A stretch of DNA of 64,000 nucleotides from a bacterium. GTDB lineage: Bacteria > UBA8248. The notes under the pieces were generated by a model. It made no database searches and was not told the origin of the DNA. It was given only the letters and a program-made list of their open reading frames with translations. Location of the stretch: assembly GCA_965199855.1 (NCBI GenBank), contig OZ241326.1, positions 1,088,001 to 1,152,000 on the forward strand, given 5' to 3'. The position numbers and the translations under genes are program-made. Of this stretch, positions 18,223-58,668 are shown one piece after another. The first letter of the stretch is position 1. The number at the start of each line of letters is the position of its first letter.

Positions 18223-18331
18223 CGGAAAGCGGGCGTGAAAAGAAGCTGGAAGAATTGCCGGCGCGCTGCGCGCATTCGCTGAGGAACGCCTTCCGGTGAG
18301 GCCGCCATTGACGAAATCGTCCGCCGTTCCC

Positions 18332-36632: not shown

Positions 36633-37069
36633 GGGGAGACCGGACGCCGCGCTCTTTGGCGATCCAGGTAGGTCTGAAGGATGAGCTGCGCCGCGATGAC
36701 GTCGCGCCTCTCCTTCTTCCTGCCGGGCTTCGTTCCGGTTTCGTTCAGAACGCGCTCCGCCTGCGCCGTGCTGAGCCGCTCGTCCCACTTCCTGACGGAA
36801 ACCTCGAGATGGCTCCGCAGCAGCCTTATCAGGCTTCTCGCGCGCTTCGCCCGCGCCGTGTCCCGGTTCGAGAGGCCGACGGGGTGGCCCACCACTACCA
36901 GCCGAACCTCATGCTCCCGGACGACGCCGCGCACATCCTCCACCAGCTGGCGGTCGCTTCGCCTTTCGATGAGGCCGAGCGGCTGGGAGGTCAGCCCCAG
37001 GGAGTCGCTGATGGCGAGCCCCACGCGCTTCTCGCCAAAGTCCATTCCCAGAACGCGGGGACGGCTCAT
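36629..37069 (-). CDS. ruvX: Holliday junction resolvase-like RuvX/YqgF
   Basis: LGMDFGEKRVGLAISD, WDERLST and D.IAA.LILQ motifs. Confidence 0.93.
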   Translation of the reverse strand: MSRPRVLGMDFGEKRVGLAISDSLGLTSQPLGLIERRSDRQLVEDVRGVVREHEVRLVVVGHPVGLSNRDTARAKRARSLIRLLRSHLEVSVRKWDERLSTAQAERVLNETGTKPGRKKERRDVIAAQLILQTYLDRQRARRPVSP

Positions 37070-38709
37070 TTTTCGGCTGGCTTCGTCCGGGCGTCGTCGG
37101 GACGGGGCATTTCAATCCGGAACCGCTCGAGGGTGGAGTGCGTCGCCCTGTCCAGCGAGGCGAGGGATTTGTGATAGTCGATGAGGGCGCGGGTCTCCTG
37201 CGTGAGCGCGTTGGCGAGGGCCTCCTGATCCTCGAGAATGTCTCTGCTCGTCGAGAGGCCGACCTTGAATTTCTTCTCCTGGGCGTCGAGGCGCTCCTCG
37301 GCCAGCCTCCTGGCGACGCGCGTGGCCTCTATGCGCTTGACGTCCACGCGAACCCGGCGCGCGGCGCGCCGGACCGCCTCCATGACGGCCTGCCGCTTCT
37401 GGTGATAGGAGGCGATCGTCCGCGCGTGTCTGAGCCGCGCCTGGCGGTAGCTCGCCTCCGCCGCCCTGTTCCCGAGGGGGATGCGGAACGAGAGGCCGCC
37501 GGAGAGGGAGTATCCGTCGTCCTCGAACTGCTCGCTCAGCGCCCTCCCGCCGCTCCGCGCGAGAGAGTTGCTGGAGGCGGAGGCGCTCAGGTCGAGCTCT
37601 GGCAGCAGGTTCCGCTTCGCCGCCTTCATGTCGATCCTTCTTTTTTCGATTTCGATGCGGGCGCTCTCCAGGTCCGCGCGCGCGCGCAGCGCCCCGAGCG
37701 TGAGCCGCGTCTCGTCCACCTTGACGGCCTTGAACGCCGGCTTGTCGGTCGGCAGGATGCTGACGCCCCAGGAGGAGGGGTCGTCCGTCACGTTCAGGAG
37801 CATCTTCAGGGCGTCTTCGCGATCCTTCACCTCGCGCTCCGCCACGAGAAGGGCTTCTTCCCGGGAGGCGACGGTGGCCTGGGCTTCCGTGATCTCTATC
37901 GGCGCGAGGGTGCCGACCTCGACCTGAATCCTGTTTCTTCGCAGCAGATCCTTGGCGAGGCCGAGGGATTTTCGCCGGAACTGCAGGTTCTGGATGGAGA
38001 AGACGAGATCCCAGTAGGCCTGTTCGACGGCGTCCACCGTCTCGATGACCCTGCTTCGGTAGGCGTGGAGCGTCTGCTCCCTCGACGCCGCGGCCACCCG
38101 TATTCTCGCCTCGTTGAAATCGACGCCGAAGTTCCTGAGCAGAGGCTGTCTGATGGTGAAGGTGAGGCCGGTGCGAAAATTCGGATTGAAGGAGTTCTGC
38201 GGGGAGTTCGTCGATTCCCGGACGCCCTCGAAGATGAGCGAATACTCCGCGCCCGTGACGATCCTCCGGCGGATGCCGCCCGACGCCGACTGGGCGCTCG
38301 TCGTCAGGCCCTCCCCCGCCGTGAACAGCCGGCTCGCCGTGTCGAGCCTGGATTTTCTCGCGGAGACGTCCGCCACGGCGGCCGGATCGAACGCGGCGCG
38401 CTCCCTGACGACTTCGCTTTCCGCGATGGGGGGGGCGAACCCGGCGATGGTGATGTCGAAATTGCGCGCGAGGGCGAGGCTCACGGCCTCCCGCGCGGAC
38501 AGCGCCAGGCGGGGGCCCTTGACGATCGGCGGCGGCACGCCGCTGCGCGGCCGCTCGAAGGACGCTTCCCCGGGAATTTTCGCGGGAGCTTCCTCCGACG
38601 CGGCGCCGGGCTTCGGCGCGGGGGCCGCCCCGGCGAGAAAGGGGGTCGGCGCCGTGAGGAGGATGGCGAGCGCGGCGATGCGGGAGAAGAAGCATCCGGG
38701 CGGTTTCAT
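37066..38709 (-). CDS. TolC family outer membrane protein
   Basis: Signal peptide; QPLLRNFG, VEQAYWDL and F.VGLSTS motifs; start reset to ATG 38709. Confidence 0.88.
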   Translation of the reverse strand: MKPPGCFFSRIAALAILLTAPTPFLAGAAPAPKPGAASEEAPAKIPGEASFERPRSGVPPPIVKGPRLALSAREAVSLALARNFDITIAGFAPPIAESEVVRERAAFDPAAVADVSARKSRLDTASRLFTAGEGLTTSAQSASGGIRRRIVTGAEYSLIFEGVRESTNSPQNSFNPNFRTGLTFTIRQPLLRNFGVDFNEARIRVAAASREQTLHAYRSRVIETVDAVEQAYWDLVFSIQNLQFRRKSLGLAKDLLRRNRIQVEVGTLAPIEITEAQATVASREEALLVAEREVKDREDALKMLLNVTDDPSSWGVSILPTDKPAFKAVKVDETRLTLGALRARADLESARIEIEKRRIDMKAAKRNLLPELDLSASASSNSLARSGGRALSEQFEDDGYSLSGGLSFRIPLGNRAAEASYRQARLRHARTIASYHQKRQAVMEAVRRAARRVRVDVKRIEATRVARRLAEERLDAQEKKFKVGLSTSRDILEDQEALANALTQETRALIDYHKSLASLDRATHSTLERFRIEMPRPDDARTKPAEK

Positions 38710-39003
38710 AAAAATCCTCGCTCCGCTTTTCCGATGGCGCGTCCCTTGAAGCTCCTTTGACGCGGGTCGGGACGGCGCTTCCATTTTCGCGGCCGCCTGC
38801 GGCTCCATATTACTCGCGCGGCGATGAAAAAGGAAACGGATTCCGGCTTCCGGTCCGCGGCGCTTCCCGCAAACGAGGGAGACGGGGCGAGCCGCTTCGT
38901 TTCTTGCGCGATGGCGCGGCGCTCTGCTAGAAGTGTTCCCGCGAGAGACATCGGCGGCGCGGCCGCTTTCCGCAGGGCGCGATTCTTCCGGGGTGGGCGA
39001 TCG

Positions 39004-39936
39004 GTGGAAGTTTTTGAGGGGGTGGACGCCTACGACGGCGAAAGCTCCCCCTCGATATTGAGCATCGGAAATTTCGACGGCGTTCATCTCGCTCATCGGG
39101 AGATTTGCCGGCTCCTCCGGGAAGAGGCCGCTCGGCGCGGCGGCAGAAGCGTGATATTGACGTTTCATCCGCACCCGCTCTCCGTCGTCGCTCCCGAAAG
39201 GCAGCCCCCCCTGATGACGACCCTGGAGGAGAAGCTGGCGCGCCTGGAGGCGCAGAACGTCGACGCCGTGGTGATCGAGAAGTTCACGCCGCGCCTGGCG
39301 CGAACCGGGGCGGGGGACTTCGCGCGGCGGATCGTCGGCGAGGGGCTCCGCGCCTCGCTGGTGGTCATCGGCTTCAACTTCCGCTTCGGGAAGGGGCGCG
39401 CGGGAAACGTCGAGCTGCTGCGGCGCGAGGGGGCGAACGCCGGGTTCGAGACGCGCGCGCTGGAGCCTTTCATGTTCGAGGGCAGGCGCGTGAGCAGCAC
39501 GGAAATACGAAAGCTGCTGCTGGGCGGAGAAGTGGAGGAGGCTGCGCGCCTTCTCGCGCGGCGCCACCTGATAGAGGGGAGGGTGGCGCGGGGCGACGGA
39601 CGCGGCCGCCGAATCGGCGTCCCGACGGCGAACGTGGACTATCCCCCCGTCCTGATTCCCGAGAACGGGGTCTATGCCTGCTGGGCGCAGATCGAGGGAA
39701 GGGAGAGCCTGCGGCGTCCCGCCGTGACGAACGTCGGAACCCGCCCCACGTTCGGCGCGAAGGGGCGGACGATCGAGGCCCATCTGCTGGACTGGGAGGG
39801 AGACCTTTACGGAAAGCCGCTTCGGGTGGAGTTCGTCTCCCGCCTGCGCGAGGAGAGGAAGTTCTCGGGCCCCGAGGAGCTCGTCGCGCAGATTCGCCTC
39901 GATATCGAGAATGGCCGGAAAAAACTGAACGCCTAG
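39004..39936 (+). CDS. ribF: Bifunctional riboflavin kinase/FAD synthetase
   Basis: IGNFDGVHLAH, TFHPHP, VSSTEIR, G.PTAN and NVGTRPTF motifs. Confidence 0.96.
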   Translation: MEVFEGVDAYDGESSPSILSIGNFDGVHLAHREICRLLREEAARRGGRSVILTFHPHPLSVVAPERQPPLMTTLEEKLARLEAQNVDAVVIEKFTPRLARTGAGDFARRIVGEGLRASLVVIGFNFRFGKGRAGNVELLRREGANAGFETRALEPFMFEGRRVSSTEIRKLLLGGEVEEAARLLARRHLIEGRVARGDGRGRRIGVPTANVDYPPVLIPENGVYACWAQIEGRESLRRPAVTNVGTRPTFGAKGRTIEAHLLDWEGDLYGKPLRVEFVSRLREERKFSGPEELVAQIRLDIENGRKKLNA

Positions 39937-40559
39937 GCGAGAAGCCCTCTCAGTCCGTCGTAGAGGAAGAACGCCCCGAACCCGCACATGGCCCACGCGC
40001 AGCCCCGCTCGATTCTCCTCCATCCGGCCTCGCCGATCATCCGGCTCCCCCGGTTCGACGACCAGGTGATGAGGAGGGCCCATGCGGCGTCCGCCAGCAG
40101 GTGGACGGCGATCATCCCCGCCAGGCCGGCCAGCCACCCGAATTCGTCCGTTCTCGCAATGAGGCCGGCGCCGACGGTGAGCCACCACAGAACCCAGTAG
40201 GGGTTCAGCGCGGTGAGCGCGGCGCCGCCGGCGAGGGCGCTCCGCTGACGCATCCTCTCTCCCCCGGAGGGCGAGGCGCGGGAACTCCCGAACGCGCCGC
40301 GTCCCAGATAGAGGAGCGCGGCGCCGCCCGCCAGAGCGACGCCCTCGCGCGTCCCCGGCGTCTCGAGGAAGGGCTGAAGACCCATGAACAGGGCGAGGAT
40401 GAGCGGAATTTCGGCCAGGGCGTGTCCGAGGGTAATCCAGACGCCGGCCCACGGGCTTTCCCTGCCCCGCATGATGAGCAGCGCGGTGAGGGGGCCCGGC
40501 GACATGACGCCGCTCAGGGAAATGGCGAGGATGAACCCGTAGAAGGCGAGCAGGCTCAT
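39933..40559 (-). CDS. LysE family transporter
   Basis: SGVMSPGP, GHALAE and NPYWVLWW motifs; hydrophobic. Confidence 0.85.
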   Translation of the reverse strand: MSLLAFYGFILAISLSGVMSPGPLTALLIMRGRESPWAGVWITLGHALAEIPLILALFMGLQPFLETPGTREGVALAGGAALLYLGRGAFGSSRASPSGGERMRQRSALAGGAALTALNPYWVLWWLTVGAGLIARTDEFGWLAGLAGMIAVHLLADAAWALLITWSSNRGSRMIGEAGWRRIERGCAWAMCGFGAFFLYDGLRGLLA

Positions 40560-40801
40560 GGCTTCGCCGCGTCCTCGGCGAGCAGACGGCGCAGCCGCCC
40601 GGCGTCCAGGTGAAACTTGAAAGCCTTTGTCGCGCCCAGGTAGCCGACGGGCACCTCCTCGCCGTGCAGGCGCGCCAGTTCCGGGCTGGCGTCCACGTCG
40701 ATTTCCTCGACGGCGAGGTCGGGAAAGCGCAGCCGCAGCGCCGCTTTCGCCTCCTCGCACAGATGGCACGCGCTTCGGGTGTAGAGGGTGAGCTTTCGCA
40801 T
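40556..40801 (-). CDS. Glutaredoxin-like protein (DUF836 type)
   Basis: LYTRSACHLC CxxC motif and EEVPV. Confidence 0.85.
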   Translation of the reverse strand: MRKLTLYTRSACHLCEEAKAALRLRFPDLAVEEIDVDASPELARLHGEEVPVGYLGATKAFKFHLDAGRLRRLLAEDAAKP

Positions 40802-40865
40802 GGTCTGAAAGTCCGCTTCGGGTTCGGGGGCGTTTTCGGGCCGCCCGATGATAGCAGACGCCCGC

Positions 40866-41363
40866 GCGGGCGGCTCCCGAACCACCCGCGCGCCCGTCGA
40901 ACGGATTGCTTTCGTAGGGACAACCCCCTGTGGTTGTCCGTCATTGAGGATGGGGAACGATCACAATCCCCTGGATTCCGGCCTTCGCCGGAATGATGAC
41001 GGGGCGAAAATGGTTTTGTAGGGGCGGTTCGTGAACCGCCCGTTTGGGGTGGTCGCCCATGGACGCCGGTTCCGTAAAAGCGGGCCCCAAGACCGCCCGT
41101 TTTCAAGAACGATTCGCATCGGAGGCAGCGGGGCGTTCCCGAACGCTCCCTACGGGTTGCGCGTCGTCGAGATGCGAACGCGGTGCCGGACAACCACAGG
41201 GGGTCGTCCCTGCGAAATGATGAAGCCCGCGCCCCGCGCCGAACGACGGGCGGGGCGCATATATGCGCCCCCTACGGAACCGTCGCCAACCCCTGGGCGG
41301 GCGGTTCACGAATTGTGGGGCGACCCCGGGGAGGGGGCGTCCCTACGGAACCGTCGCCAACCC
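40866..41363. repeat. Mosaic cluster of REP-like palindromic elements
   Basis: GTAG-headed hairpins such as GTAGGGGCGGTTCGTGAACCGCCC 41018-41041; 30 bp inverted repeat 40911-40940/41187-41216 (2 mismatches); 23 bp direct repeat 41270-41292/41341-41363; CTGGATTCCGGCCTTCGCCGGAATGA 40971-40996. Confidence 0.75.
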
Positions 41364-45422: not shown

Positions 45423-45462
45423 TTGACCTGGATAATAAGGCGCCATACAATCAGGCTCCATA
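45423..45462 (+). promoter_or_regulatory. sigma70 promoter of marR with overlapping candidate operators
   Basis: TTGACC-17 bp-TACAAT (45423-45451); TAAGGCGCCATA 45436-45447 and TCAGGCTCCATA 45451-45462. Confidence 0.65.
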
Positions 45463-45481
45463 ACATTTTCGGAGCTTTCCG

Positions 45482-45997
45482 ATGTTCCACATGAAGGAGC
45501 TGCCCAGCGAGGAGGACTTCCGCACCCTCGCGCCGGAGTATTCCTCTCTGGATACTTCCTCCGTCATGCTGTTTTATCTTTTTCTGCGGGTCGGCAGCGA
45601 CATGCTCACCGCGTTCGAGACGTATCTGGCCGATCACGGCGTGTCGCAGGGCAGGTTCATCGTCCTGTTGCTGCTTCTGCGCTCGCAGGTGAGAAACAAC
45701 GGCTCGGGCCTCGGCCCCTCCGAGCTGGCCAGACAGGCGGGCGTTACGCGCGCGACGATGACGGGACTGATGGACGGCCTTCAGCGCGACGGCCTCATCG
45801 ATCGCCTCGACCATCGCGGCGACAGGAGAAAGGTCATCGCGCGCCTGACGCCGAAGGGCAGGGAGAGCCTGAACGCCATTTTTCCCGACTATTATTCGCG
45901 CATCGCGGAGTTGATGAACGACCTGGAGGACGAGGAGAGGGAAAAATTGTCCGCCCTTCTCCACAAGGTGAAGAACAAGGTGCATTCGTTGAAGTAG
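45482..45997 (+). CDS. MarR family transcriptional regulator
   Basis: PSELARQAGVTRATMTGLMDGL...DRR...LTPKG winged HTH. Confidence 0.92.
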   Translation: MFHMKELPSEEDFRTLAPEYSSLDTSSVMLFYLFLRVGSDMLTAFETYLADHGVSQGRFIVLLLLLRSQVRNNGSGLGPSELARQAGVTRATMTGLMDGLQRDGLIDRLDHRGDRRKVIARLTPKGRESLNAIFPDYYSRIAELMNDLEDEEREKLSALLHKVKNKVHSLK

Positions 45998-46086
45998 GCG
46001 CTCCGCGCCCGCGCTCGACGATGAAGCGTTTCTTTGCTCACAAGGTTCGACAGAGGAAATCCTCACCGGAGAAGGAGAACGCGGCG

Positions 46087-47331
46087 ATGCCGAAACCTAA
46101 GGTGATCATCCAGCTGTATCCCATGCTGCCGACGGAGAGCCGGGAGGAGCGCGAGCGGAAAAGACCCCTGGCCAGGGACAGGGATTTGTATCACCACGTG
46201 CTCCATGAATGGCTCGACATCGTGAAGGCGGCCGACGAGATGGGCGTGTGGGGCGTCAGCACCATCGAGCACCATCTGCACTCCGAGGGCTATGAGGTGG
46301 GCCCCAATCCCGGGGTTCTCAACGCCTGGTGGGCCGCGCAGATCAAGAACGCGCGCGTCGGCGCGCTCGGCTACGTCATGGCGACGCAGGATCCGGTTCG
46401 CGTGGCCGAGGAGACGGCCATTCTCGATCACATCACCAAGGGCAAGTTCTTCTGCGGCGTGGCGAGGGGGTATCAGTCCAGGTGGGCGAACGTCCTGGGG
46501 CAGTTCAGCGACACCCGGGCGACCGTCTCCTCGGATTTGGGCGGCGCCGACGACGTGAAGAACCGCGACATCTTCGAGGAGCGCGTCGAGATGCTTCTCA
46601 AATTCTGGCAGGAGGATTCGGTGGAGGTGAAGGGGGATTTCTACGAGATTCCCTATCCCTACGAGGAGGGCATCGACTACCCCGCCTGGAAGAGCGCGCG
46701 CGACGCCGGCGCCATCGGCGAGATCGGCGACGACAGCCGCGTGCGGAAGGTGAGCGTCGTTCCCAAGCCCTATCAGGAGCCGTATCCGCCCGTGTTCCAG
46801 GCCGTGAGCGCGAGCGCGGACTCCATCAGGTTCGCGGCGAGGCACGGGTTCCGGCCCGTCTATTTCACCAAGCTGGAGAAGATGGAGGAATTCTCCCATC
46901 TCTACGTGGAGGAAGGGGTCAGGGCGGGCCACAACTTCGCGCACGGGGAGCGGCAGTGCGTGTGCCGGTGGATTCACGTGTCGGACACCGAAGAAGAGTA
47001 TGACGAGAAGCTCAGGAGATACGATCAGGACATCTACCAGAATTTCTACGTCCCCTTCTTCCCCCAGTTCCCGGACGACACGGAAAGCATCGACTGGATT
47101 GCGAACATCAAGGAGAGCGGCATCTTCCTGGGAGGGCCGGTGGAGAGGCTCAAGCGCGAATGGGAGGAGACGTACGAAAAGGTGCCCTCCGAGTTCATCA
47201 CCCTGATCTGGCACTACGCGCAATGCCCCAAGGAGGAGGTCATCTACGAGCTGGAAACCTTCATGACGAAGGTGTGGCCCGACCTGGAATGCCCGGTGTC
47301 GAACGGCGTCACGGTCGGCGGCGTCGCCTGA
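46087..47331 (+). CDS. LLM-class (luciferase-like) flavin-dependent oxidoreductase
   Basis: EHH, DPVRVAEE.AILDH.TKG, GVARGY and PKPYQ.P.PP motifs. Confidence 0.9.
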   Translation: MPKPKVIIQLYPMLPTESREERERKRPLARDRDLYHHVLHEWLDIVKAADEMGVWGVSTIEHHLHSEGYEVGPNPGVLNAWWAAQIKNARVGALGYVMATQDPVRVAEETAILDHITKGKFFCGVARGYQSRWANVLGQFSDTRATVSSDLGGADDVKNRDIFEERVEMLLKFWQEDSVEVKGDFYEIPYPYEEGIDYPAWKSARDAGAIGEIGDDSRVRKVSVVPKPYQEPYPPVFQAVSASADSIRFAARHGFRPVYFTKLEKMEEFSHLYVEEGVRAGHNFAHGERQCVCRWIHVSDTEEEYDEKLRRYDQDIYQNFYVPFFPQFPDDTESIDWIANIKESGIFLGGPVERLKREWEETYEKVPSEFITLIWHYAQCPKEEVIYELETFMTKVWPDLECPVSNGVTVGGVA

Positions 47332-47398
47332 TTTTCTTGACGATGCGGCCCCCCGCGCGGCCGGCGGGGGCGTCGGGGTCGTTTTCAAGGAGAGAGCC

Positions 47399-48112
47399 AT
47401 GTATGAGATCATCGATCTGAGCCAGGAGATCTACACCGACGCGCCCAGGTTTCCGGGGCATCCGGCGACGAAGGTCGAATACGTCGCCAGGCACGAGGAC
47501 GCGGCGAACGCGCCCATCAAGCCCAAAGACATCACCTACGCGGCCATGATGCTCCACATGTGCGATCACGGGCCGACGCACACCGATTCGGTCAGCCATA
47601 TCGACGAGCGCGAAACGGCGCCGAACATCGATCAGGCGCCGCTGGAGTGGTTCATCACCCGGGCGGTGGCGCTGGACTTCACGGGCAAGGTCGAGCCGAT
47701 GGAGGAGATATCGCTGCGGCTGCTTCAGGATGAGCTTTCGGCGGCGAATCTGACGCCCCCCAGGGACGGGACGCTTCTTTTCACGGGCGGGCACTTCAAG
47801 CGCACCTATCCTGCGGACGACTACCTCACGACGTATCCGGGGCTGGGATACGAAGCCGCGAATTTTCTCTACCGAGAATGCGGCGTGGTGAACATCGGCC
47901 AGGACGCTCCCAGCATCGACGCGGGCGTGAACACCACGGAGCTCACGTTTCCCTGCCACGTGCTTTGCCGCGAACTCCAGCGCCACAACACCGAGAACCT
48001 GGCGAACATCGAGGCGGTGGCGGGCAGGGAATTTCTCTACGTGGGACTGCCCCTGAAAATCCGGCAGGGCACGGGGTCTCCCGTTCGCGCCGTCGCCGTG
48101 ATGAACCTGTGA
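47399..48112 (+). CDS. Cyclase family (kynurenine formamidase-like) metal hydrolase
   Basis: IIDLS, HGPTHTDSVSH, YPGL, ENL and PLKIRQGTGSPVRAVA motifs. Confidence 0.9.
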   Translation: MYEIIDLSQEIYTDAPRFPGHPATKVEYVARHEDAANAPIKPKDITYAAMMLHMCDHGPTHTDSVSHIDERETAPNIDQAPLEWFITRAVALDFTGKVEPMEEISLRLLQDELSAANLTPPRDGTLLFTGGHFKRTYPADDYLTTYPGLGYEAANFLYRECGVVNIGQDAPSIDAGVNTTELTFPCHVLCRELQRHNTENLANIEAVAGREFLYVGLPLKIRQGTGSPVRAVAVMNL

Positions 48113-48239
48113 GGCGAGGGGAAGGGCGGCCGCTTCCGTTTCCGGCGAGCGGGCGCGGGGCCGTTTTTCGGGCCGCTTTCCTTGTCCTCGCCTTGCCGCA
48201 ACGAAGGGGTTTTCTCGTTTCGTGAGGAGCTTTGCGGAT

Positions 48240-48590
48240 ATGTCGAAGATGGCGGACTGGTATTACCATCGCTCCGGCTGAAAGACCTGCGCCAAAACGC
48301 AAGCGTTTCTTGCGTCGAAGGGCATCGGGGTGTCCGATCAGGCGAACGCCAAAAAAGACGCCATTGATGAGGGCGGGGTCGATCCCGTTCTGCGGGGCGT
48401 AACGGATATCTATTCGACCAGGGGCAGGAAGGTGCTTCACCTGAGCATGAAAAAAGGAAAGCCCGCGCGCGAAGAGGCGCTGGCTCTCCTGCTGGGCCGT
48501 TCGGGCGCGCTCAGAGCGCCGGTTATCAGGCATCGAGGCGCTCTCATCGTCGGATTCGACGAGGAAACATACGCCCGGGTTTTCAAATGA
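48240..48590 (+). CDS. ArsC/Spx-like redoxin selenoprotein (Sec at 48279-48281)
   Basis: GAGGAG RBS, ATG 48240; reads MSKMADWYYHRSG-U-KTCAKTQAFL in frame into ORF 48330-48590 (LRAP...IVGF); SECIS-like hairpin 48297-48315. Confidence 0.85.
48297..48315 (+). promoter_or_regulatory. Candidate bacterial SECIS element
   Basis: Stem ACGCAAG/CTTGCGT, loop CGTTT starting 22 nt after the UGA. Confidence 0.65.
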
Positions 48591-48606
48591 GCGGCGTCTC
48601 GGCGGC

Positions 48607-50061
48607 TTAGAGGGCCAACTGGCCCCGGGTGGGCTCCGCTCAGCAGAACCAGGATTCGCTCAGCCGCGGCGGGCGAATCCGATCCGGCGAGAAGACGGCC
48701 TTCGGGTCCGCCTGATCGGGACGCTCCAGTATGTCGGCCGCCAGTCGGCGGACGTTCGCAAACGTAGCGGCGGCGTCCTCGCAGCGCGCGGCGGCGTCTT
48801 CCGCGAGAGCAAGCGCCTCCTCATGCAGTTTGTCCATCCTCTCGTCCGGATGCTCCCAGCGATGGATGAAGTTCTCCGCGTCGAGCTCCTTGAGGTATGG
48901 CGCCATGTGCGGAGAGTCGAGCAGGCGGGAGCCCGGCGGCACGAGAAGCCTGATGGCCATTTGAATGGGGTCCACCTCGTCGATCAAGGCGCGCTCTTCG
49001 ATGAAGTCCAGCAGATCGAAATAATCCTGCGGGCTCGTCCACGGCGTGAACGCGACGAGCGACGGCCTGATGGAAAGGCCCGCCTCCCGCGCCGCCCTCA
49101 CGACGCGGAACACGTCCTCTCTCGAGTGCCCCTTGGCCAGATGCCGAAGCGCGAGGTCGCTTAAAGACTCGACCGCGGTGATGAAGAACGCGCAGCCGCT
49201 TTCCCGGAACTGCGGCAGGAGCTCCTCGTGCCTGACGAGATGCTCCACCTTGGCCGTGAAGTCGAAAGTGAGGGAGGGGAACCGCTCCCGGAAGGCGCGC
49301 GTGAGCCGAACCGCGTGGGCCGGCCCGTTGAGGAAGTCCGGGTCGGCGAAACTGATGTGCCGCGCCCCCCGCGCGGCCAGATATTCAATATCCTCCAGCG
49401 CCTTCTCCTGCGGCACGACGAAGAAGCGGCCCTCATAGACCGGCGGAATCGGGCAGTGAAGACACAAATGCTTGCAGCCACGGCTCGCCTCGACGGCTCC
49501 GGCGGGATAGCGGCGGCCGTCCCTTATGAGGTGGGCGTATGTCTGAATCGCGGGCAGAGGCTCCCGCTCGGGCGTGAGCAGGGGAATTTTTTCAAGATAT
49601 GGGCCGGAAGTCCGCTCTCTCGTGGCCGCGCCCGGAACCTCGATGACGCCCGAGGCTCGGGACAACCCTTGGACGAGCTCGAGGAGCGGCCGCTCAAACT
49701 CCCCGCCGATGGCCGAATCCGCGCCGTTTTCGAGCAGATAGTCCTTGTTGAGCAGGCCGTAGAGGCCGTAGAAGCAGATGTGGCATTCGGGGTTCGTCTC
49801 GCGTATTCTCGCCGCCACCCCCACGCCGAGCCTGAGCGCCGTGTGCATCGGCACGCTGATGCCCGCGAATTTCGCTTTCGAGACTTTCGCCTCGGAGAAA
49901 TCCTCCGCCGCCACGTCCATCGCCCAAGGTTGAAAGCCCGCTTCGCGCAGGAAGGCCAGGGGCGAGGCGACGGCCAGCGGCTGGCGTCCCAGCTCGTAGC
50001 AGGAAACGAGAACGACGGCGCCGGGCGCCTTCCACCCGTTCGTGTTGCCGTTTCGGCTCAA
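48607..50061 (-). CDS. Radical SAM selenoprotein with B12-binding-like N-terminus and CUAEP tail (Sec at 48642-48640)
   Basis: CxxxCxxC motif (RGCKHLCLHC); reading through TGA gives SESWFC-U-AEPTRGQLAL then TAA 48609-48607. Confidence 0.88.
48611..48626 (-). promoter_or_regulatory. Candidate bacterial SECIS element
   Basis: Minus-strand stem GGGGCC/GGCCCT, loop AGTT starting 19 nt after the UGA. Confidence 0.65.
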
Positions 50062-50086
50062 GGCGAACCCTCTCGCTTCGCCAGGT

Positions 50087-50118
50087 AAAAAGCCCCGGGC
50101 GACATGAGCCCGGGGCTT
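50087..50118 (-). terminator. Rho-independent terminator after the IscA/HesB gene
   Basis: Minus strand GCCCCGGGC-TCATGTC-GCCCGGGGC followed by TTTTT. Confidence 0.75.
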
Positions 50119-50140
50119 GCGGTCTGCTGTCGGCTCCCGC

Positions 50141-50524
50141 TCACGTGGTGAAGGATTTGCCGCAGCCGCACATGCTCATCGCGTTCGGGTTGTTGATCTT
50201 GAAGCCCGAGCCTTGCAGGGTATCGACGAAATCGATCTCCGTTCCCGCGATGACGGGGTAGCTCCGGGGATCCACGAACACGTCGAAGCCCTCGGCGGAG
50301 AACACCTTGTCCTCCGGGTGGGCGGACTCCTCGAAATAAAGGCCGTAGTTGTAGCCCGAGCATCCGCCGGCCGTGACGGCCAGGCGAAGGCCGTGGCCGC
50401 TTTTCCCCTCCGCCGCCAGAATCTCGATCACCTTTTCATTGGCGGCCGAAGTCACGGAGAGGCCTTCAAGCGCCTGCGGCTTTTGCTGGGACTGGTCGAA
50501 CAGGGTGATCGTTGCATCCGGCAT
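50141..50524 (-). CDS. HesB/IscA/ErpA iron-sulfur cluster carrier
   Basis: GGCSG..Y and NPNA...CGCGKSF motifs. Confidence 0.95.
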   Translation of the reverse strand: MPDATITLFDQSQQKPQALEGLSVTSAANEKVIEILAAEGKSGHGLRLAVTAGGCSGYNYGLYFEESAHPEDKVFSAEGFDVFVDPRSYPVIAGTEIDFVDTLQGSGFKINNPNAMSMCGCGKSFTT

Positions 50525-50609
50525 GGGTCGCTTCTCCTCATGGCGATTGATTTCTGGTTTTCGCGCCTTCACGCGCGTCAGTGTTCTCACGTCTTGCTTC
50601 ACCTGATGA

Positions 50610-50637
50610 ATATTACCCTTTTTCGCGTCTTTTGCAA
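50610..50637 (-). promoter_or_regulatory. Candidate promoter of the IscA/HesB gene
   Basis: Minus strand TTGCAA-16 bp-TAATAT. Confidence 0.45.
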
Positions 50638-50969: not shown

Positions 50970-53603
50970 ATGAATTTTCAACATTTCACCCACAAGACGC
51001 AGGAAGCGCTCCAGCACGCCCAGGAGTTGGCGCAACTGAGGGGACACCAGGGCGTAACCCCCGCGCACGTGCTCCTGGCGCTTCTGGATCAGCCCGAGGG
51101 CGTGCTCGCGCCCCTCGTCGAGAAAGCCGGGGCGAACGCCCAGGCGTTGAACCGGGATATCGAAGCCTTCCTGAAGAAACTTCCGCAGATTACGGGAAGC
51201 GGCGCGTCCATGTATGTAACGCCCGAGTTGGCGGAACTTTTCGAGGCGGCCCGGCGCGAGGCGAAGGCTATGGCGGACGAATACGTGAGCGGCGAGCACC
51301 TGCTCCTGGCCGCGCTTGATGGCGGCGGCCCCGAGGTCGTGAAAATTCTGCGCGCGGCCGGCCTCGACCGGGAGCCCGCGCTCGCCGCGCTCAAGGATAT
51401 CCGGGGAAACCAGCGGGTCACCGATCAGGACGCCGAGAGCCGCTACCAGGCGCTCGAGCGCTTCGCCATCGACCTCACCGCGCAGGCCCGGTCCGGCAAA
51501 CTCGATCCCGTCGTGGGCCGCGACGAGGAAATCAGGCGCGTCATGCAGGTGCTCTCCCGGCGATCGAAGAACAACCCGGTGCTCATCGGAGACCCCGGCG
51601 TGGGCAAGACGGCGATTGTCGAGGGCCTGGCCCAGCGCATCGTGAACGGCGACGTGCCGGAGGGCCTGAAGGGCAAGCGCCTGCTCAACCTCGACATCGG
51701 CTCTCTCGTCGCGGGCTCGAAGTTCCGGGGCGAGTTCGAGGACAGGCTCAAGGCCGTGCTGAAGGAAGTGAGCGAATCGGCGGGCGAGATCATCCTCTTC
51801 ATCGACGAACTGCACACCGTAGTGGGCGCGGGCGCGGCGGAGGGGGCGGTGGACGCCTCGAACCTGCTCAAGCCGGCCCTCGCGCGCGGAGAGTTGCGCT
51901 GCGTGGGCGCCACCACGCTGGATGAATACCGAAAGCACATCGAGAAGGACGCGGCGCTCGAGCGGCGCTTTCAGCCCGTCGTGGTGGATGAACCCGGCGT
52001 CGAGGACGCCATCTCGATTCTGCGCGGCCTCAAGGAGAGGTACGAGATTCACCACGGCGTCCGCATCCTGGACGGCGCTCTGGTCGCCGCCGCCGCGCTC
52101 TCCCATCGCTACATCAGCGACCGCCATCTGCCCGACAAGGCCATCGACCTGATTGACGAGGCCGCGAGCGGACTGCGCCTCGAACTGGACAGCCTGCCCA
52201 AGGAAATCGACCGTCAGGAGCGCGAGCTTCTTCGCCTGCGCATCGAGGGGCGCGCCCTGGAGCAGGAAGAGGACGAGGAGAGCCAGGAGCGGCTGGCCCA
52301 CATACGCGAGCAAATCTCCCTGCTGGACGAGCAGAGCAAGGAGCAGCGAAGCCGGTGGGCGGAGGAGAAAAAGGCCATCTCGCGGGTGCGCGAACTCAAG
52401 GAGCGCGTCGAGGAAACGAGGGCGGAAGCCCAGCGCGCGGAGCGCGAGGGGGATTTGGGACGGGCGGCGGAGCTTCGCTACGGCCGGATCATCGAGCTGG
52501 AGAAGGAGATGGCCCAGGCGGAGGCGCGTCTCAGGGAAGAGAGCGACGGACGGATGCTGAAAGAGGAGATTCGGGAGGACGACGTGGCCGCCGTCGTGAG
52601 CCGCTGGACGGGCGTCAACGTGAGCGCGCTGCTCGAGACGGAACGGGAGAAGCTCCTGCGCATGGAAGAGAACATCCACAAGCGCGTCGTGGGCCAGGAC
52701 CGGGCGGTGGAGGCCCTCTCCGAAGCCGTGCGCCGCGCTCGCGCGGGCGTCATGGACGAGAACCGCCCCATCGGTTCGTTCATCTTCCTGGGACCCACCG
52801 GCGTGGGCAAGACGGAGCTCGCCCGCGCGCTCGCGGAGTTTCTGTTCGACGACGAGTCGGCGATGATTCGCGTGGACATGAGCGAATACATGGAAAGACA
52901 CGCCGTGGCGCGGCTCATCGGCGCTCCGCCCGGGTACGTCGGCTACGACGAGGGCGGGCAGCTCACCGAAGCCGTGCGAAGAAGACCCTATTCCGTGCTT
53001 CTGCTGGACGAGATTGAAAAGGCGCATCCCGAAACGTTCAACCTGCTCCTGCAGCTGCTCGACGACGGGCGGCTGACGGACGGGCACGGCCGCGCGGTCG
53101 ATTTCAGAAACGCCGTCGTCATCATGACGAGCAACGTGGGAACCGCCGAACTCTCCCGGAGCAGGATCGGCTTCGTCGGGGGCGGGCTGGAGGAGCAGGC
53201 CGATCAGTCCGAACAGGTGCTCGCGGCGCTTCGCGAGGTTTTCCGGCCCGAGTTCCTGAACCGGATCGATGAGATCATCGCCTTCCGCGCCCTCACGAGG
53301 GAGCAGATTCGCGAGATCGTGGACATTCGGCTGCGCGACCTCGAAAAGCGCCTCGAAGCGCAGAAAATCAGACTGCGCCTCACGAACGCCGCCAAGGACT
53401 TTCTGGCCGAGCGCGGCTACGCTCCCGTCTATGGCGCGCGGCCGCTCAAGAGGGCGATTCAGGCGCATGTCCTGAATCCGCTCAGCAAGAAGCTGCTGGC
53501 CGGAGATTTCGAGGCGGGAGAGACCGTCGAGGCCGATCATGAAGAAGGAGCGGATGCGCTCTCCTTCGCCGTCGTCATGGAGGCGGAAGCGGTGAGGGCC
53601 TGA
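50970..53603 (+). CDS. clpB: ATP-dependent chaperone ClpB
   Basis: Two AAA+ modules ([16 protein letters not shown]), coiled-coil M-domain with [16 protein letters not shown]. Confidence 0.97.
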
Positions 53604-53688
53604 GATCTTGCGGCGCGCGGTCGAACGAGCGGGGAGCGCGGCTGAGCCTGCATGGAACCTTGATTGGATCGGATAAGGAGAAAGGCTG

Positions 53689-55611
53689 ATGTCAAAGGTC
53701 ATCGGAATCGATTTGGGCACCACCAACTCGGTCGTCTCGGTCATGGAGGGCGGGCAGCCCACGGTCATTTCCAACCAGGAGGGGAACCGCACGACGCCCA
53801 GCGTCGTGGCGTTCACGGACGACGACGAGAAGCTCGTCGGCCTCGTGGCCAAGCGCCAGGCGGTGACGAACCCGGTGAAGACCATTTACTCCGTCAAGCG
53901 CTTCATGGGCAGGCGCTTCGCCGAGGTGCCCGAGGAAGTCGTCATCGTGCCCTACGAGGTTGTGAAGTCGGACAACGGCGACGCGCGCATCAGGATCAGC
54001 GGCAAGGAGCACGCCCCGCCCGAAATATCGGCGAGCGTGCTGCAGAAGCTCAGGCAGGCGGCGGAGGACTACCTGGGGGAGAAGGTGACCGAGGCGGTCG
54101 TCACCGTGCCCGCCTACTTCAACGACAGCCAGCGTCAGGCGACGAAGGACGCCGGGAAGATCGCCGGCCTCAACGTCCAGCGCATCATCAACGAGCCGAC
54201 GGCGGCGGCGCTCGCCTACGGCCTCGACAAGAAGACGGATCAGACCATCGCGGTCTATGACTTCGGCGGCGGCACGTTCGACATCTCCATCCTCGAGGTG
54301 GGCGACAACGTGGTCGAGGTGAAGGCCACGAACGGCGATACGCACCTGGGCGGCGACAACATCGATCAGCGCGTCATCGAGTGGATGGCGGAGGAGTTCA
54401 GGAAAGATCAGGGAATCGACGTATCGGGCGACCCCATGGCGCTCCAGCGTCTGCGCGAGGAATCGGAGAAGGCGAAAATCGAGCTGTCGAGCTCCATGGA
54501 GACGGCGATCAACCTGCCGTTCATCACGGCGGACGCCTCGGGCCCCAAGCACCTGAACCTCAAGCTCACGCGCGCGAAGCTCGAGCAGCTGACGGGCGAT
54601 CTGGTGGAGAAGACGCTGGGCCCCTGCCGGCGCGCTCTCGACGACGCCAAGCTCCAGCCCGGAGACATCGACGAGGTGGTGCTGGTGGGCGGCTCCACGA
54701 GGATGCCCCTGGTGCAGGAGATGGTGGAGAAGTTTTTCGGAAAGGAGCCCCACAAGGGCGTGAACCCGGACGAGGTGGTGGCGGTCGGCGCGGGCGTGCA
54801 GGGCGGCGTGCTGGCGGGCGACGTCAAGGACGTTCTTTTGCTGGACGTCACGCCGCTTTCTCTGGGCATCGAGACCCTGGGCGGCGTGTTCACCAAGCTG
54901 ATCGAGCGCAACACGACGATACCGGTCAAGAAGAGCGAAATCTTCTCCACGGCGGCGGACAGCCAGCCCTCCGTCGAGGTGCACGTCCTCCAGGGAGAGC
55001 GCGAGATGGCCGCGGGCAACCGCGCTCTGGGCAAGTTCCATCTGGTCGGCATCCCTCCGGCGCCCCGGGGTGTTCCGCAGATCGAGGTGACCTTCGACAT
55101 CGACGCCAACGGCATCGTGAACGTCTCCGCCAAGGACCTCGGCACCGGAAAGGAGCAGGCGATCACGATCACGAGCTCGAGCGGCCTCTCCGAGGAGGAG
55201 ATCAACAATATGGTGTCCGAGGCGGACGAGCACGCCGAGGAGGACAAGAAGCGCCGCGAGGCCGTCGAGACGAGAAACGCGGCCGACAGCATGGCCTACA
55301 ACACGGAGAAGATGCTGAAGGAAAACGGGGAGAAGGTGCCCGAGGCGGACAGGAAGGAGATAGAAGAGGCCATCGCCGCGCTTCGGGCGGTTCTGGAGAA
55401 GGAAGACGCGGCGGCGGAGGAGATCGCGGAGGCGCAGTCGAAGCTCGAGGCGGCCTCGCACAAGCTCGCCCAGGCGATGTATGAGCAGGCGAGCCAGGGC
55501 GACGGCGCCGGGGGAGAGTCCGCCGGCGGGACGGACGGAGCGCCCGAGCCTCCTCCCGCGGGCGACGTGGTGGACGCGGAGTTCGAGGAGGTGGACAAGG
55601 ACAGGAAGTAG
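53689..55611 (+). CDS. dnaK: Chaperone DnaK
   Basis: [17 protein letters not shown] and DFGGGTFD motifs. Confidence 0.99.
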
Positions 55612-55635
55612 CGCTCCTGCCCGGATGAGGACGAA

Positions 55636-56586
55636 ATGCCCAAGCGCGATTACTACGAGATTCTGGGAATCGATCGGAGCGCTTCGGAGGCGGAGCTCAA
55701 GCGCGCCTTCAAGAAGCTCGCGCGGAAATACCACCCCGACGTGAACCCGGGGGACAAGAAGGCGGAGGAGCGCTTCAAGGAGATCAGCGAGGCATACGCC
55801 GTTCTCTCGGACAAGGAGAAGCGCGGACGATACGACGCCATGGGCCATGCCGCTTTCGGCGGAGGGAGCCCCTGGGGCGAGGGCGGCGCCGCGCCCGGCA
55901 TGGAGGACATTCTGCGCGAGTTCGGCTTGGGCGACATTCTGGGAGGGATGTTCGGCGGCGGCCGCGCGGGACGCGGGGGCTTCGGCGCGCGGCCTCGGCA
56001 GCCCCGGCGCGGCCAGGATTTGAACTACTCCATGGAGATCGGCTTCGACGACGCCCTCAAGGGGCTCAACACCACCATCACCGTGCCCAAGACCGCGCAG
56101 ACGGACGGCGGAATCGAGCGCACCACCGAGCGCATTCAGGTGAAGATACCGCCCGGCGTCTCCAACGGCTCGCGCATTCGCCTGGCGGGGAAGGGGGAGT
56201 CTTCCCTGAACGGGGGAGCGCAGGGCGACCTCTTCATCGTGACGAAGGTGCGCGATCATCCCTTCTTCGAGCGCAAGGGGGACAACCTGTATCTCGAACT
56301 TCCCGTCACCCTCGGCGAGGCGCTGCTGGGCGCGCGCGTGGAGATCAACACCTTCGAGGGAGCGACGAAGATGACGATTCCCCCCTCCACCCAGAACGGG
56401 CAGGTTTTCAGGCTTCCGGGAAAGGGGGCTCCGAAGCTGAAGGGCTCCGGCCAGGGCGATTTATACGTCACCATCAGCGTCATGCTGCCGGAGAGGATGG
56501 ACGAGGAAAGCAAGGAGATCGTCCGCGAACTGGAGAGGCGCAACCCCGCGTCGCCGCGCGCGAACATGACGGGCGTGAGCCTGTAG
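55636..56586 (+). CDS. Class II J-domain protein (CbpA-like, no zinc finger)
   Basis: HPD J-domain, G/F region and DnaJ C-terminal domain; no CxxCxGxG repeats. Confidence 0.92.
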
Positions 56587-56616
56587 GCGCAGGGCGAGCG
56601 CATCCGGGAGAGAAGC

Positions 56617-57024
56617 ATGGCGCGCAGAAGCGTGAGGAGCGGACGCTACACCATCGGCGCGGTGGCCGAGATGTTCGGCGTCCATCAGCAGACGCTCCGG
56701 CTCTATGAGCGCGAGGGGCTGATAGACCCCGGCCGCAGCGAGGGCCGGACGCGCTATTACTCGGAAGAGGATTTGGAGCAGCTCGAGGTCATTCTCGCGC
56801 TCACGCGGGACATGGGCGTGAATCTGGCGGGCGTCCAGGTCATCATCGAACTTCGCGAGAAGCTCATGCGGGCGCTCGAGCGCCTGGGCGAACTCGAAGA
56901 GCTGCTCGAGAGCCGCGCGTTCGAGGATTTCCGCGAGCGGATGAGCCGCGCGACGCCCGAGATGCGGGCCATGATCCCCGCGGTTTCGGCCAAGCTCGTT
57001 CGCTTCAGAAGGAGACGAGGATGA
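56617..57024 (+). CDS. hspR: MerR-family heat-shock repressor HspR
   Basis: [17 protein letters not shown] and GVNLAGV motifs; follows the J-protein gene. Confidence 0.88.
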
Positions 57025-57878
57025 GTACGAACTCCATAAAGTCCTTTTTGCTGCTCGGCCTGCTGACGGGGCTGATTTTGCTCATCGGAAACCTCGTCGG
57101 CGGAACGGGCGGGCTGATCGTCGCCCTGCTCCTGGCCGTGGGGCTGAACGGATACAGCTACTGGTATTCGGACAAAATGGTTCTGGCCGCCACGGACGCG
57201 CGCGAGGTTCTGCCCGAGCACGCGCCGGAGCTCTACGGCATGGTGGCGGAGCTCGCGCGGCGCGCGAACCTGCCCATGCCGCGCGTCTACGTCATCCCCG
57301 AGAGCGCGCCGAACGCCTTCGCCACGGGACGAAACCCGGAGAACGCCGCCGTCGCCTTCACCGAGGGGATTCTGCGCGAGCTCGACCGCGAGGAGCTCGA
57401 AGGCGTGGCCGCGCACGAGCTCGCCCACGTCAGGAACCGCGACATTCTGCTGAGCACCATCGCCGCCTCCCTGGCGGGCGCCATCATGTATATCGCGCAG
57501 ATGGCGCAGTTCGCCGCTTTTTTCGGCGCCTACGGCAGGGATGACGAGGAGGAGGGCGGCGGAGGCCTGCTGGGAATCATCGTCGCCGCCATCGTGGCTC
57601 CCGTCGCGGCTACCCTGCTCCAGATGGCGGTGAGCCGCTCGCGGGAGTATCTGGCCGACGCCACCGGGGCGCGCATCGCCGGCGCGCCCGTCGGGCTGGC
57701 GAACGCCCTGCGCCGCCTGGACGCGGCCTCCCGCCGGGAGGAGCTCGCCTGCGCGAGCGAGGCGACGGCCCACATGTATATCGTCAACCCCCTTGCGGGC
57801 GGGGGGCTGGCGAGTCTGTTCAGCACGCACCCGCCGATGGAGGAGCGCATCCGGCGGCTGATGGAGATGAGATACTAG
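57021..57878 (+). CDS. htpX: Zinc metalloprotease HtpX
   Basis: [23 protein letters not shown] and FSTHPP motifs. Confidence 0.95.
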
Positions 57879-57899
57879 GCTTGGGGAGGAAGTCGTCGC

Positions 57900-58625
57900 A
57901 TGAAAGGCGAAAGAATCGAGAGCGGGACGGGCGATGAGGACGGGCTGAAGGCGAAAGCCCCCGCGGGAGAGCCGGAGCGCGCCGCGCCCGCTGAAGAGGA
58001 GGAGAAGGAAAAGCCGCGCGTCGTGGACAGGCGCCGCGTCAGGGAGGGCGGCGAAATCAGCGAGGAGGACGCGGAGGCGGCCGAGAGCGTCCCGCGCGTT
58101 CCCGCCTATGTCGAGCAGCTGCAGGCGAAAGTCGCCGCCGCCGAGGAGAAGCTCAGGCGGCACATCGAGCGAATCGACAAGGAGGCGGCTGACTTCCGGG
58201 CGCGCCAGGAGCGCGAAATGGAGCGCAGAACCCAGGAAGCGAAGCGGCAGGCGGTCTCCGGCTTTTTGGACATCGCCGATGATCTGGCGCGCGCCACGGC
58301 GGCCGCGGACGGCGGCGGGGGCGAGGGAGGATCGCTCGAAACCCTGGCGCAGGGGGTGCGGATGATTCAGGGCCGCTTCTTTCAGGAGCTGGCGAACCTG
58401 GGGGTGGAGCCTCTCGAGGCGGTGGGCGCCGCCTTCAACCCCGAGGAGCACGAGGCTGTACGGATGGTCGAGGTGAGCGATGAGGCGCGGGACGGCCTTG
58501 TGGTGGAGGAATTCTCCTGCGGCTACCGGCTGGGCGGCGCGATTCTGCGGCCCGCGCGCGTCTCGGTGGGCAAATACGCGGGCGAGCCGCCGGCGCAGGC
58601 TGTTGAACCGGACGCGCGCGCGTAG
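57900..58625 (+). CDS. grpE: Nucleotide exchange factor GrpE
   Basis: FNPEEHEAV and GYRLGGAILRPARVSV motifs. Confidence 0.93.
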   Translation: MKGERIESGTGDEDGLKAKAPAGEPERAAPAEEEEKEKPRVVDRRRVREGGEISEEDAEAAESVPRVPAYVEQLQAKVAAAEEKLRRHIERIDKEAADFRARQEREMERRTQEAKRQAVSGFLDIADDLARATAAADGGGGEGGSLETLAQGVRMIQGRFFQELANLGVEPLEAVGAAFNPEEHEAVRMVEVSDEARDGLVVEEFSCGYRLGGAILRPARVSVGKYAGEPPAQAVEPDARA

Positions 58626-58668
58626 TATCTTCGCGTGCTTCGATTGTCGGGATAGATAAAGGAAAAGC

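Follow-up and report, generated by a model that had tools for sequence, protein, structure and literature searches.

The radical S-adenosylmethionine (SAM) enzyme ArsL, known from arsinothricin synthesis, forms a C-As bond. The accessible parts of the ArsL papers describe six conserved cysteines, of which three serve the cluster and three, in the tail, bind As(III), and the cleavage of SAM to MTA and a 3-amino-3-carboxypropyl (ACP) radical. A related family, NF040546 ("CUAEP/CCAEP-tail radical SAM (seleno)protein"), is called uncharacterized in the accessible text of a preprint that notes its CU motif (Haft 2022, bioRxiv 10.1101/2022.07.06.499078). In the literature searched, that preprint alone named the family, no assigned function was found in the parts available, and nothing combined radical SAM, selenocysteine (Sec), and arsinothricin. 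A further selenoprotein family, NF041106 ("ArsC family (seleno)protein"), is listed as "arsenate reductase-like protein, UxxC" in a 2026 review, with no function assigned in its accessible text (PMC13188914). We analyzed a locus in which one gene from each family lies tail to tail. It is found in a 64,000-nucleotide stretch of DNA (the window) from a bacterium of the UBA8248 lineage (assembly GCA_965199855.1, contig OZ241326.1, positions 1,088,001 to 1,152,000).

The radical SAM gene occupies positions 48607-50061 of the minus strand, and the ArsC-like gene occupies 48240-48590 of the plus strand. The two genes converge, and their stop codons are separated by 16 nt (48591-48606). On the minus strand, a gene for an Fe-S carrier of the IscA type ends 79 nt upstream of the radical SAM start. 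On the plus strand, the order is marR, a luciferase-like monooxygenase (LLM) gene, a PF04199 cyclase gene, and then the ArsC-like gene. An initial annotation, made from the letters of the window, had proposed a selenium-dependent metalloid-processing locus. Its description of the sequence (the two UGAs, the convergence, the coordinates, and the flanking genes) holds to the base, and its gene identities are correct, as very probably are both Sec codons. Our interpretation of the function is different. We consider it probable that iscA and the radical SAM gene form a functional unit with ArsL-like chemistry, that the ArsC-like redoxin is a clade-specific neighbor, and that the two convergent units are adjacent mainly by descent.

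Relation to ArsL and to arsenate reductases

The radical SAM gene starts with TTG at 50061 and continues through an in-frame TGA (48642-48640, residue 474) to a TAA stop at 48609-48607, encoding 484 residues. The protein contains a CX3CX2C motif (CKHLCLHC, 49476-49453) and ends in PPRLSESWFC-U-AEPTRGQLAL. We scored the proteins of the window against Pfam and NCBIfam using the curated cut-offs. The radical SAM protein matched PF04055 and belongs to NF040546 (638.3 bits against a cut-off of 500, residues 16-483). The match is full length, the CX3CX2C and WFC-U-AEP motifs are present, and Sec is at the known site, so that nothing sets this protein apart from its family. The second-best NCBIfam family was ArsL (NF040542), but the score of 283.8 bits is under the cut-off of 450, the alignment covers residues 17-426 only, and the tail is WFCUAEP rather than RCCLKC; the protein is not a member of the ArsL family. 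It is 33% identical over 421 residues to an RCCLKC-tail protein from a Bacillus cereus plasmid. PDB sequence searches gave a remote match to a radical SAM core (5.7e-8); no ArsL structure was found. The second-place score and the plasmid identity bear out the kinship to ArsL on which the initial annotation had drawn. Both families, with Sec in each, are already catalogued.

To compare the protein with its relatives, we used a scan of species-representative genomes, which found a relative in at least 596 species-level genomes, and we retained the best-scoring 80 loci (L001-L080). With the window, these make up an 81-row alignment and tree. The cluster cysteines C196, C200, and C203 are conserved in all 81 rows, as is C21 (codon 50001-49999), and C290 (codon 49194-49192) is conserved in 79. 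Where the tail is present, C473 occurs in 76 of 77 rows, and of the 76 rows with residue 474, 54 have U and 22 have C. In the one ArsL-type protein compared, C21 is replaced by N and C290 by V. The conservation suggests that C21, C290, C473, and U474 are four family-specific chalcogen residues, which may possibly make up a second metal or cluster site. The protein thus resembles ArsL in its N-terminal domain, its domain order, its CX3CX2C core, and the presence of a Cys-rich C-terminal tail. It differs in that the tail is about 58 residues longer, lies outside the ArsL profile alignment, and carries C-U instead of CCxxC, and in that C21 and C290 are specific to the CUAEP family.

A tblastn search of plasmids with the radical SAM protein gave 37 records. 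One was the megaplasmid of Thermomicrobium roseum DSM 5159 (51% identity, annotated as CUAEP/CCAEP-tail). The other 24 plasmid matches listed were about 33% identical, and 23 of these 24 are named RCCLKC-tail proteins. On the B. cereus plasmid pAH820_272, the RCCLKC-tail gene stands amid two arsR genes, a major intrinsic protein (MIP) channel gene, Acr3, arsC, arsD, arsA, MarR, and ATP-grasp genes, whereas the 64 kb window contains no ars genes. A Priestia plasmid has the same RCCLKC-tail core without an ars operon in the stretch shown. On two Bacillaceae plasmids (L082:453-13209 and L083:1672-10781), the RCCLKC-tail radical SAM gene is accompanied by genes for MarR, a carboxymuconolactone decarboxylase (CMD)/AhpD-like protein, ATP-grasp, ArsR, an aquaporin, and a GTP-binding protein. 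Proximity to an ATP-grasp gene is a feature that these ArsL-type genes share with the CUAEP family. The T. roseum gene (L081:8968-10440, NC_011961.1) is flanked by aminotransferase and major facilitator superfamily (MFS) transporter genes, with no ars genes among its neighbors.

Glutaredoxin-type arsenate reductases, such as Escherichia coli R773 ArsC, use a catalytic Cys together with an arginine triad. The ArsC-like gene of the window starts with ATG at 48240, has an in-frame TGA at 48279-48281 (residue 14), and ends with a TGA stop at 48588-48590. The 116-residue product reads MSKMADWYYHRSG-U-KTCAK, with the motif G-U-K-T-C. It scored 113.8 bits against NF041106 (cut-off 85), shares the U-x-x-C motif of that family, and shows no difference from it. 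The next best NCBIfam family was Spx/MgsR (TIGR01617), with 37.6 bits. As this is below the cut-off of 75.05, we rejected the reading of the protein as a Spx-type regulator. No arsenate reductase model (TIGR00014 included) was among the 10 families listed at E <= 10, although the HMMER filters may hide very weak matches. The role of arsenate reductase implied in the initial annotation is therefore not supported by the family test. Like TIGR00014 proteins, the redoxin falls in the Pfam superfamily PF03960 (35.6 bits), but it has UxxC where the arsenate reductase selenoprotein listed separately under TIGR00014 has UxxS, according to the accessible text of the review (PMC13188914). The closest PDB sequence matches were remote ones to Spx (E about 0.01). 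U14-x-x-C17 aligns on the CxxC redox motif of Spx, and R92, which is invariant, lies in an LRAP motif that Spx also has. A word-indexed homologue search gave 20 matches, mostly from the clade of the window, and was uninformative on the spread of the family. Judged by these family matches, the protein is best described as a putative UxxC thiol/selenol oxidoreductase of the ArsC/Spx superfamily and not as an arsenate reductase.

These results bear on the pathway put forward in the initial annotation, in which the ArsC-like protein reduces As(V) or a selenium oxyanion, the Cys-Sec tail of the radical SAM enzyme takes the metalloid for formation of a C-As or C-Se bond, and IscA supplies clusters. 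Such a pathway would be in keeping with the position of the enzyme in the nearest paralogue family of ArsL, with the As(III) binding ascribed to the Cys-rich tail in the accessible parts of the ArsL papers, and with the finding, in the accessible text of the preprint (10.1101/2022.07.06.499078), that CU motifs otherwise occur in metal-handling selenoproteins. A MerT-like mercuric transport gene (L078:4348-4833) also lies 562 nt upstream of one radical SAM gene, on the opposite strand, and belongs to a cluster found at three loci at varying distances. However, the nearest relatives of the redoxin are Spx-type, and no ars, arsM, or Acr3 gene was found in the window or among the recurrent neighbor clusters scanned, whereas the ArsL-family locus described above is embedded in ars genes. 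The tail of the enzyme is not homologous to RCCLKC, as the alignment to the ArsL profile extends no further than residue 426 of 484. The breadth of the family, which spans at least 596 species-level genomes in many phyla, is more in line with a general function than with a niche arsenic antibiotic, and the adjacency of the two selenoprotein genes is confined to one clade (see below). A metalloid role is not supported by gene context, and we consider this pathway quite unlikely.

Neighbors of the radical SAM gene

The pairing of a radical SAM enzyme with an Fe-S carrier is familiar from lipoyl synthase and NfuA. In the window, the gene upstream of the radical SAM gene (50141-50524, minus strand) encodes an A-type Fe-S carrier (PF01521; TIGR00049, 116.7 bits against a cut-off of 58.8) that is below the equivalog cut-offs for ErpA (102.8 against 117) and IscA (92.4 against 150.6). 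Its residues C55, C119, and C121 are invariant in nine sequences. The window and eight reference loci (L001-L008) make up a clade of nine tree rows, with the other 72 loci outside it, and iscA has the same position and strand in all eight.

We clustered the open reading frames (ORFs) within 6 kb of each radical SAM gene and scanned the cluster representatives, rather than every ORF, against Pfam and NCBIfam. At least 1 kb of flanking sequence was available on both sides in 59 of the 80 loci, and in 54 of the 72 outside the window's clade. A cluster of Fe-S carriers (IscA, Nfu, and IscA-Nfu fusions) was represented at 35 of the 80 loci, in 26 cases within 300 nt and on the same strand. Pfam assigned 31 of its members to IscA alone (6), IscA-NifU fusions (4), and NifU with or without Nfu_N (20), leaving one with no match. 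YggX (PF04362) was found at 10 loci, all from Chloroflexota. Either a carrier or YggX was present at 45 of the 80 loci and at 40 of the 59 with sufficient flanks. On the tree, adjacency to an IscA domain requires at least 4 changes, and that to a NifU domain at least 9. The link between Fe-S carrier and radical SAM enzyme suggested in the initial annotation is thus found repeatedly, in three domain architectures and in several phyla.

Other genes with Fe-S-related products also occur at this position. An Rrf2 (IscR-like) regulator gene lies directly upstream of iscA and the radical SAM gene in the sister lineages L006 (424-903), L007 (2-418), and L008 (5546-6082), and in the Elusimicrobia locus L025 (9064-9645); the window and L001-L005 lack it and have a divergent clpB in its place. 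CDGSH, SufT-like, or ferredoxin genes adjoin the radical SAM gene in L012, L025, L049, L065, and L069. The resemblance to lipoyl synthase and NfuA lies in the carrier gene adjoining the radical SAM gene, whereas the only lead to an auxiliary or sacrificial cluster here is the set of four extra conserved Cys/Sec residues.

Other recurrent neighbors include amino-acid-tailoring genes. An ATP-grasp protein with an L-amino-acid-ligase C-terminal domain is encoded at 32 of the 80 loci, DUF169 at 21, a formyltransferase at 7, an MFS/Atg22 transporter at 6, and a pyridoxal phosphate (PLP) decarboxylase together with a protein containing a formylglycine-generating enzyme (FGE)-sulfatase domain at 4, from Planctomycetota. 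No arsenic family (ars, arsM, Acr3) was among the cluster representatives scanned, which do not stand for all neighboring ORFs. Outside the window's clade (L010-L080), the typical order is the radical SAM gene, a Nfu/NifU-type gene, an ATP-grasp gene of the L-amino-acid-ligase type, and DUF169 (for example L068:10001-13769, L012:10001-14724, and L070:10001-13048). This arrangement looks like a conserved small-molecule operon; our literature search found no publication that combined DUF169 with radical SAM. Nfu, ATP-grasp, and DUF169 genes are thus common elsewhere in NF040546, whereas the window's clade has iscA upstream and a convergent ArsC-like selenoprotein gene instead.

In a tblastn search of the 80 loci, the convergent ArsC-like gene was found 22-163 nt from the radical SAM gene in L001-L005, L007, and L008 only. 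Our own hidden Markov model (HMM), searched against six frames with TGA read through, recovered the same 7 loci (E <= 1e-55), and the next best match had E = 0.11. The adjacency is therefore not a peculiarity of this genome, being shared by 7 further loci, but it is restricted to the single clade formed by the window and L001-L008 (Shimodaira-Hasegawa-like approximate likelihood ratio test 99), where it occurs in 8 of 9 rows (7 of the 8 reference loci). None of the 72 loci outside the clade (54 with at least 1 kb on both sides) had an ArsC-family gene within 10 kb of the radical SAM gene. Within the clade, L006 has a flavin oxidoreductase gene downstream of the radical SAM gene in place of the ArsC-like gene. 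Of the associations suggested by the initial annotation, co-occurrence with Fe-S carriers was thus upheld across the family, and that with the Sec-containing ArsC-like gene was limited to one clade. The genes for ClpB, DnaK, IscA, LLM, BI-1, and an M16 peptidase are also syntenic in this clade. Because the whole block is syntenic, conserved adjacency is indistinguishable from conserved gene order, and common descent explains it no less well than function.

Vicinal Cys-Sec tails serve as redox arms in thioredoxin reductase. By analogy, the two selenoproteins could be coupled without any metalloid: the UxxC selenoredoxin would re-reduce a Cys473-Sec474 selenenylsulfide (or a Se-S adduct) on the radical SAM tail after each turnover, and convergence would keep the genes co-inherited. 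The retention of the adjacency in 7 of the 8 reference loci is consistent with this, as are the alignment of U-x-x-C with the Spx redox motif and the occurrence of the Sec form in all 8 radical SAM proteins with an adjacent redoxin (from the window and the 7 loci) and in all 8 redoxins. An unrelated thioredoxin-fold protein, a BrxA/B bacilliredoxin, is encoded near the radical SAM gene at 3 of the 80 loci and directly after it in two Gemmatimonadota loci, L056 (11513-12000 region) and L074 (6296-6787). However, coupling does not account for the 72 loci without a nearby ArsC-family gene or for L006; the genes, being convergent, are not co-transcribed; and the entire surrounding block is syntenic in the clade. 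We regard coupling of the redoxin to the radical SAM enzyme as a minority possibility, though not a negligible one.

Decoding of the two UGA codons

Most public gene calls cut both genes short. Among the 120 homologues of the radical SAM protein in the matches listed, 100 stop directly after W[FY]C and 18 carry on as W[FY]C-C-AEP, and 15 of the 20 ArsC-like matches start after the UGA (76-86 aa). In T. roseum, TGA is at the CU site (10402-10404) and the RefSeq coding sequence stops there, but AEPLEDPSGPVA continues in frame. These calls would be correct if the UGAs were ordinary stops or lesions, in which case Cys473 would be the last residue of the radical SAM protein, and the ArsC-like gene would be a pseudogene or encode an N-terminally shortened 86-aa protein. 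No Sec machinery was seen within the window to speak against this: it contains no sel genes and no tRNA-Sec, its sole tRNA is a tRNA-Leu, and Rfam at the gathering threshold likewise detected only the tRNA-Leu.

Comparison of the radical SAM genes indicates otherwise. The codon at the tail site is TGA in 53 of the 80 loci and TGC or TGT in 22 (5 could not be assessed), and the AEPT.GQ motif of the Cys forms recurs in the 10 codons past the UGA. RNAalifold, applied to 49 Sec-form sequences, predicted a hairpin 16 nt past the UGA with 5 pairs, 4 of which showed compensatory changes. The loop is of the GU-containing form (A)GUU(N), and 50 of 52 Sec forms have a stem of 4-8 bp at this position. 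The best stems had a median of 6 bp in Sec forms, and a median of 4 bp at scattered places in the 22 Cys forms (Mann-Whitney p = 2e-6), so that the covarying hairpin at this site is found only in TGA forms. In the window, this Sec insertion sequence (SECIS) hairpin (48611-48626, minus strand; GGGGCC-AGUU-GGCCCU) is wholly within the coding tail and does not reach the neighboring gene. Sec decoding of this UGA is well supported by the comparison.

For the ArsC-like gene, TGA is present in 7 of 7 related loci, Cys is found at the site in one homologue (P0140), and the 13 codons before the UGA encode a conserved DWYYHR.G strand in 7 of 7 loci. A candidate SECIS hairpin (48298-48314, plus strand; CGCAAG-CGUUU-CUUGCG) begins 19 nt past the UGA. 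All 6 of its pairs are kept in 8 of 8 aligned sequences, with no compensatory changes. Single-sequence folds of the 67-68 nt past each UGA were no better than shuffles (z = -0.27 and -0.02), and the case for both SECIS elements is thus a comparative one. A crude scan of the window for in-frame TGA codons followed by a hairpin returned the radical SAM gene and one antisense artefact; it missed the ArsC-like gene and is therefore insensitive. Given the coding conservation on the far side of each UGA, the Cys residues at both sites in homologues, and, for the radical SAM gene, the hairpin specific to TGA forms, it is extremely improbable that the UGAs are ordinary stops or lesions.

Remaining genes and a proposed mode of action

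The coordinates and Pfam matches confirm the three genes said to precede the ArsC-like gene on the plus strand. The first (45482-45997) encodes a MarR-family regulator (PF01047 MarR, 37.1 bits) that is 85-88% identical in L001-L005 by tblastn and has no tblastn match at E <= 1e-5 in L007. The second (46084-47331) encodes an LLM of 415 aa (PF00296, 79.4 bits) that reached no NCBIfam subfamily cut-off and is 92-94% identical in L001-L005 and 79% in L007. The third (47399-48112) encodes a PF04199 "putative cyclase" (arylformamidase-like; 80.4 bits) that scored 45.7 bits against TIGR03035, under the cut-off of 223. It is present in L001-L005. In L007 it was not detected, and the ORFs lying in the gap match nothing in Pfam. 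The region between the cyclase and ArsC-like genes is poorly conserved except for the ribosome-binding site and is uninformative on co-transcription of the redoxin gene. Scans for promoters (2 promoter-like sites against 1.1 expected) and terminators (6 terminator-like sites against 5.8 expected) were at chance level. Neither the terminator scan nor an inverted-repeat scan found anything between the convergent stops.

A heat-shock block adjoins the locus (50970-59790), with clpB, dnaK, a DnaJ-like gene, a MerR-family regulator gene, an M48 (HtpX-like) peptidase gene, grpE, and dnaJ. Further away, the G+C content dips to 0.596 at 18001-20000, against about 0.67-0.73 in the surroundings. This dip coincides with two ORFs (17071-19477), one with a DNA-methylase domain and one of 393 aa without a Pfam match, which follow recA and may be an acquired restriction-modification-like insert. 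A 1375-aa ORF on the minus strand (37069-41193) has a C-terminal outer-membrane efflux (OEP) domain as its sole Pfam match, with the first ~1150 residues unmatched.

We infer the chemistry of both proteins from their relatives and their gene context. In the reading we favor, the minus-strand unit consists of iscA followed by a CUAEP-tail radical SAM selenoenzyme paralogous to ArsL. The radical SAM core would cleave SAM reductively, and the flexible Cys473-Sec474 tail would either carry and activate a soft substrate atom or form a redox-active selenenylsulfide. IscA would load or repair the Fe-S cluster or clusters of the enzyme. An amino-acid-like product, formed by ArsL-like chemistry, would be the most likely mode of action. 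The indications for such a product are the neighboring genes for ATP-grasp ligase-type proteins (32 loci), formyltransferases (7), and PLP decarboxylases (4), and the presence of ATP-grasp genes near RCCLKC-tail radical SAM genes. The plus-strand unit, marR-LLM-cyclase followed by the UxxC selenoredoxin of the ArsC/Spx/YffB superfamily, would be separate, and the selenoredoxin would act as a thiol/selenol-disulfide oxidoreductase.

A more specific version of the chemistry would make the CUAEP enzyme a widespread but undescribed selenoenzyme that forms bonds from a chalcogen or metalloid to carbon. An ArsL-like ACP radical would be captured by S, Se, or a soft metalloid that Cys473-Sec474, C21, and C290 hold jointly, perhaps in the form of a sacrificial auxiliary cluster. 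The dedicated partners of the IscA, Nfu, or YggX type would thereby be accounted for. The ATP-grasp enzyme would ligate the unusual amino acid so formed, and the clade-private UxxC selenoredoxin would recycle the Cys-Sec tail, making the two selenoproteins a catalytic pair. We think it unlikely that all of this applies.

Several observations weigh against our preferred reading, that of an iscA-radical SAM unit beside a redoxin gene retained mainly by descent. ACP-type cleavage of SAM is an extrapolation from a paralogue that shares 33% identity. As the top scorers among the relatives in at least 596 genomes, the 80 loci are a non-random sample, and short contigs inflate the counts of neighbor changes on the tree. 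The window's own clade has no ATP-grasp or DUF169 genes close by and may therefore make a different product. Two selenoprotein genes placed tail to tail and 16 nt apart are unusual, and as the arrangement is kept in 7 of 8 loci, selection for adjacency is possible. The adjacency spans 62-81% identity of the radical SAM protein and includes records labelled Tectomicrobia and Nitrospinae. The bacilliredoxin genes next to the radical SAM gene in L056 and L074 hint that the enzyme may repeatedly need a redoxin partner.

The locus alone adds one more member to each of two catalogued selenoprotein families, and the value of the analysis lies in the survey of neighborhoods. The survey indicates that the nearest paralogue family of ArsL is present in at least 596 species-level genomes, is usually a selenoenzyme, and occurs recurrently with Fe-S carriers and amino-acid-tailoring genes. 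The 81-row tree includes Nitrospirota, Planctomycetota, Acidobacteriota, Chloroflexota, Gemmatimonadota, Rokubacteria, and Poribacteria. As the cultured T. roseum DSM 5159 carries a Sec form of the enzyme, the chemistry of the family is open to testing.

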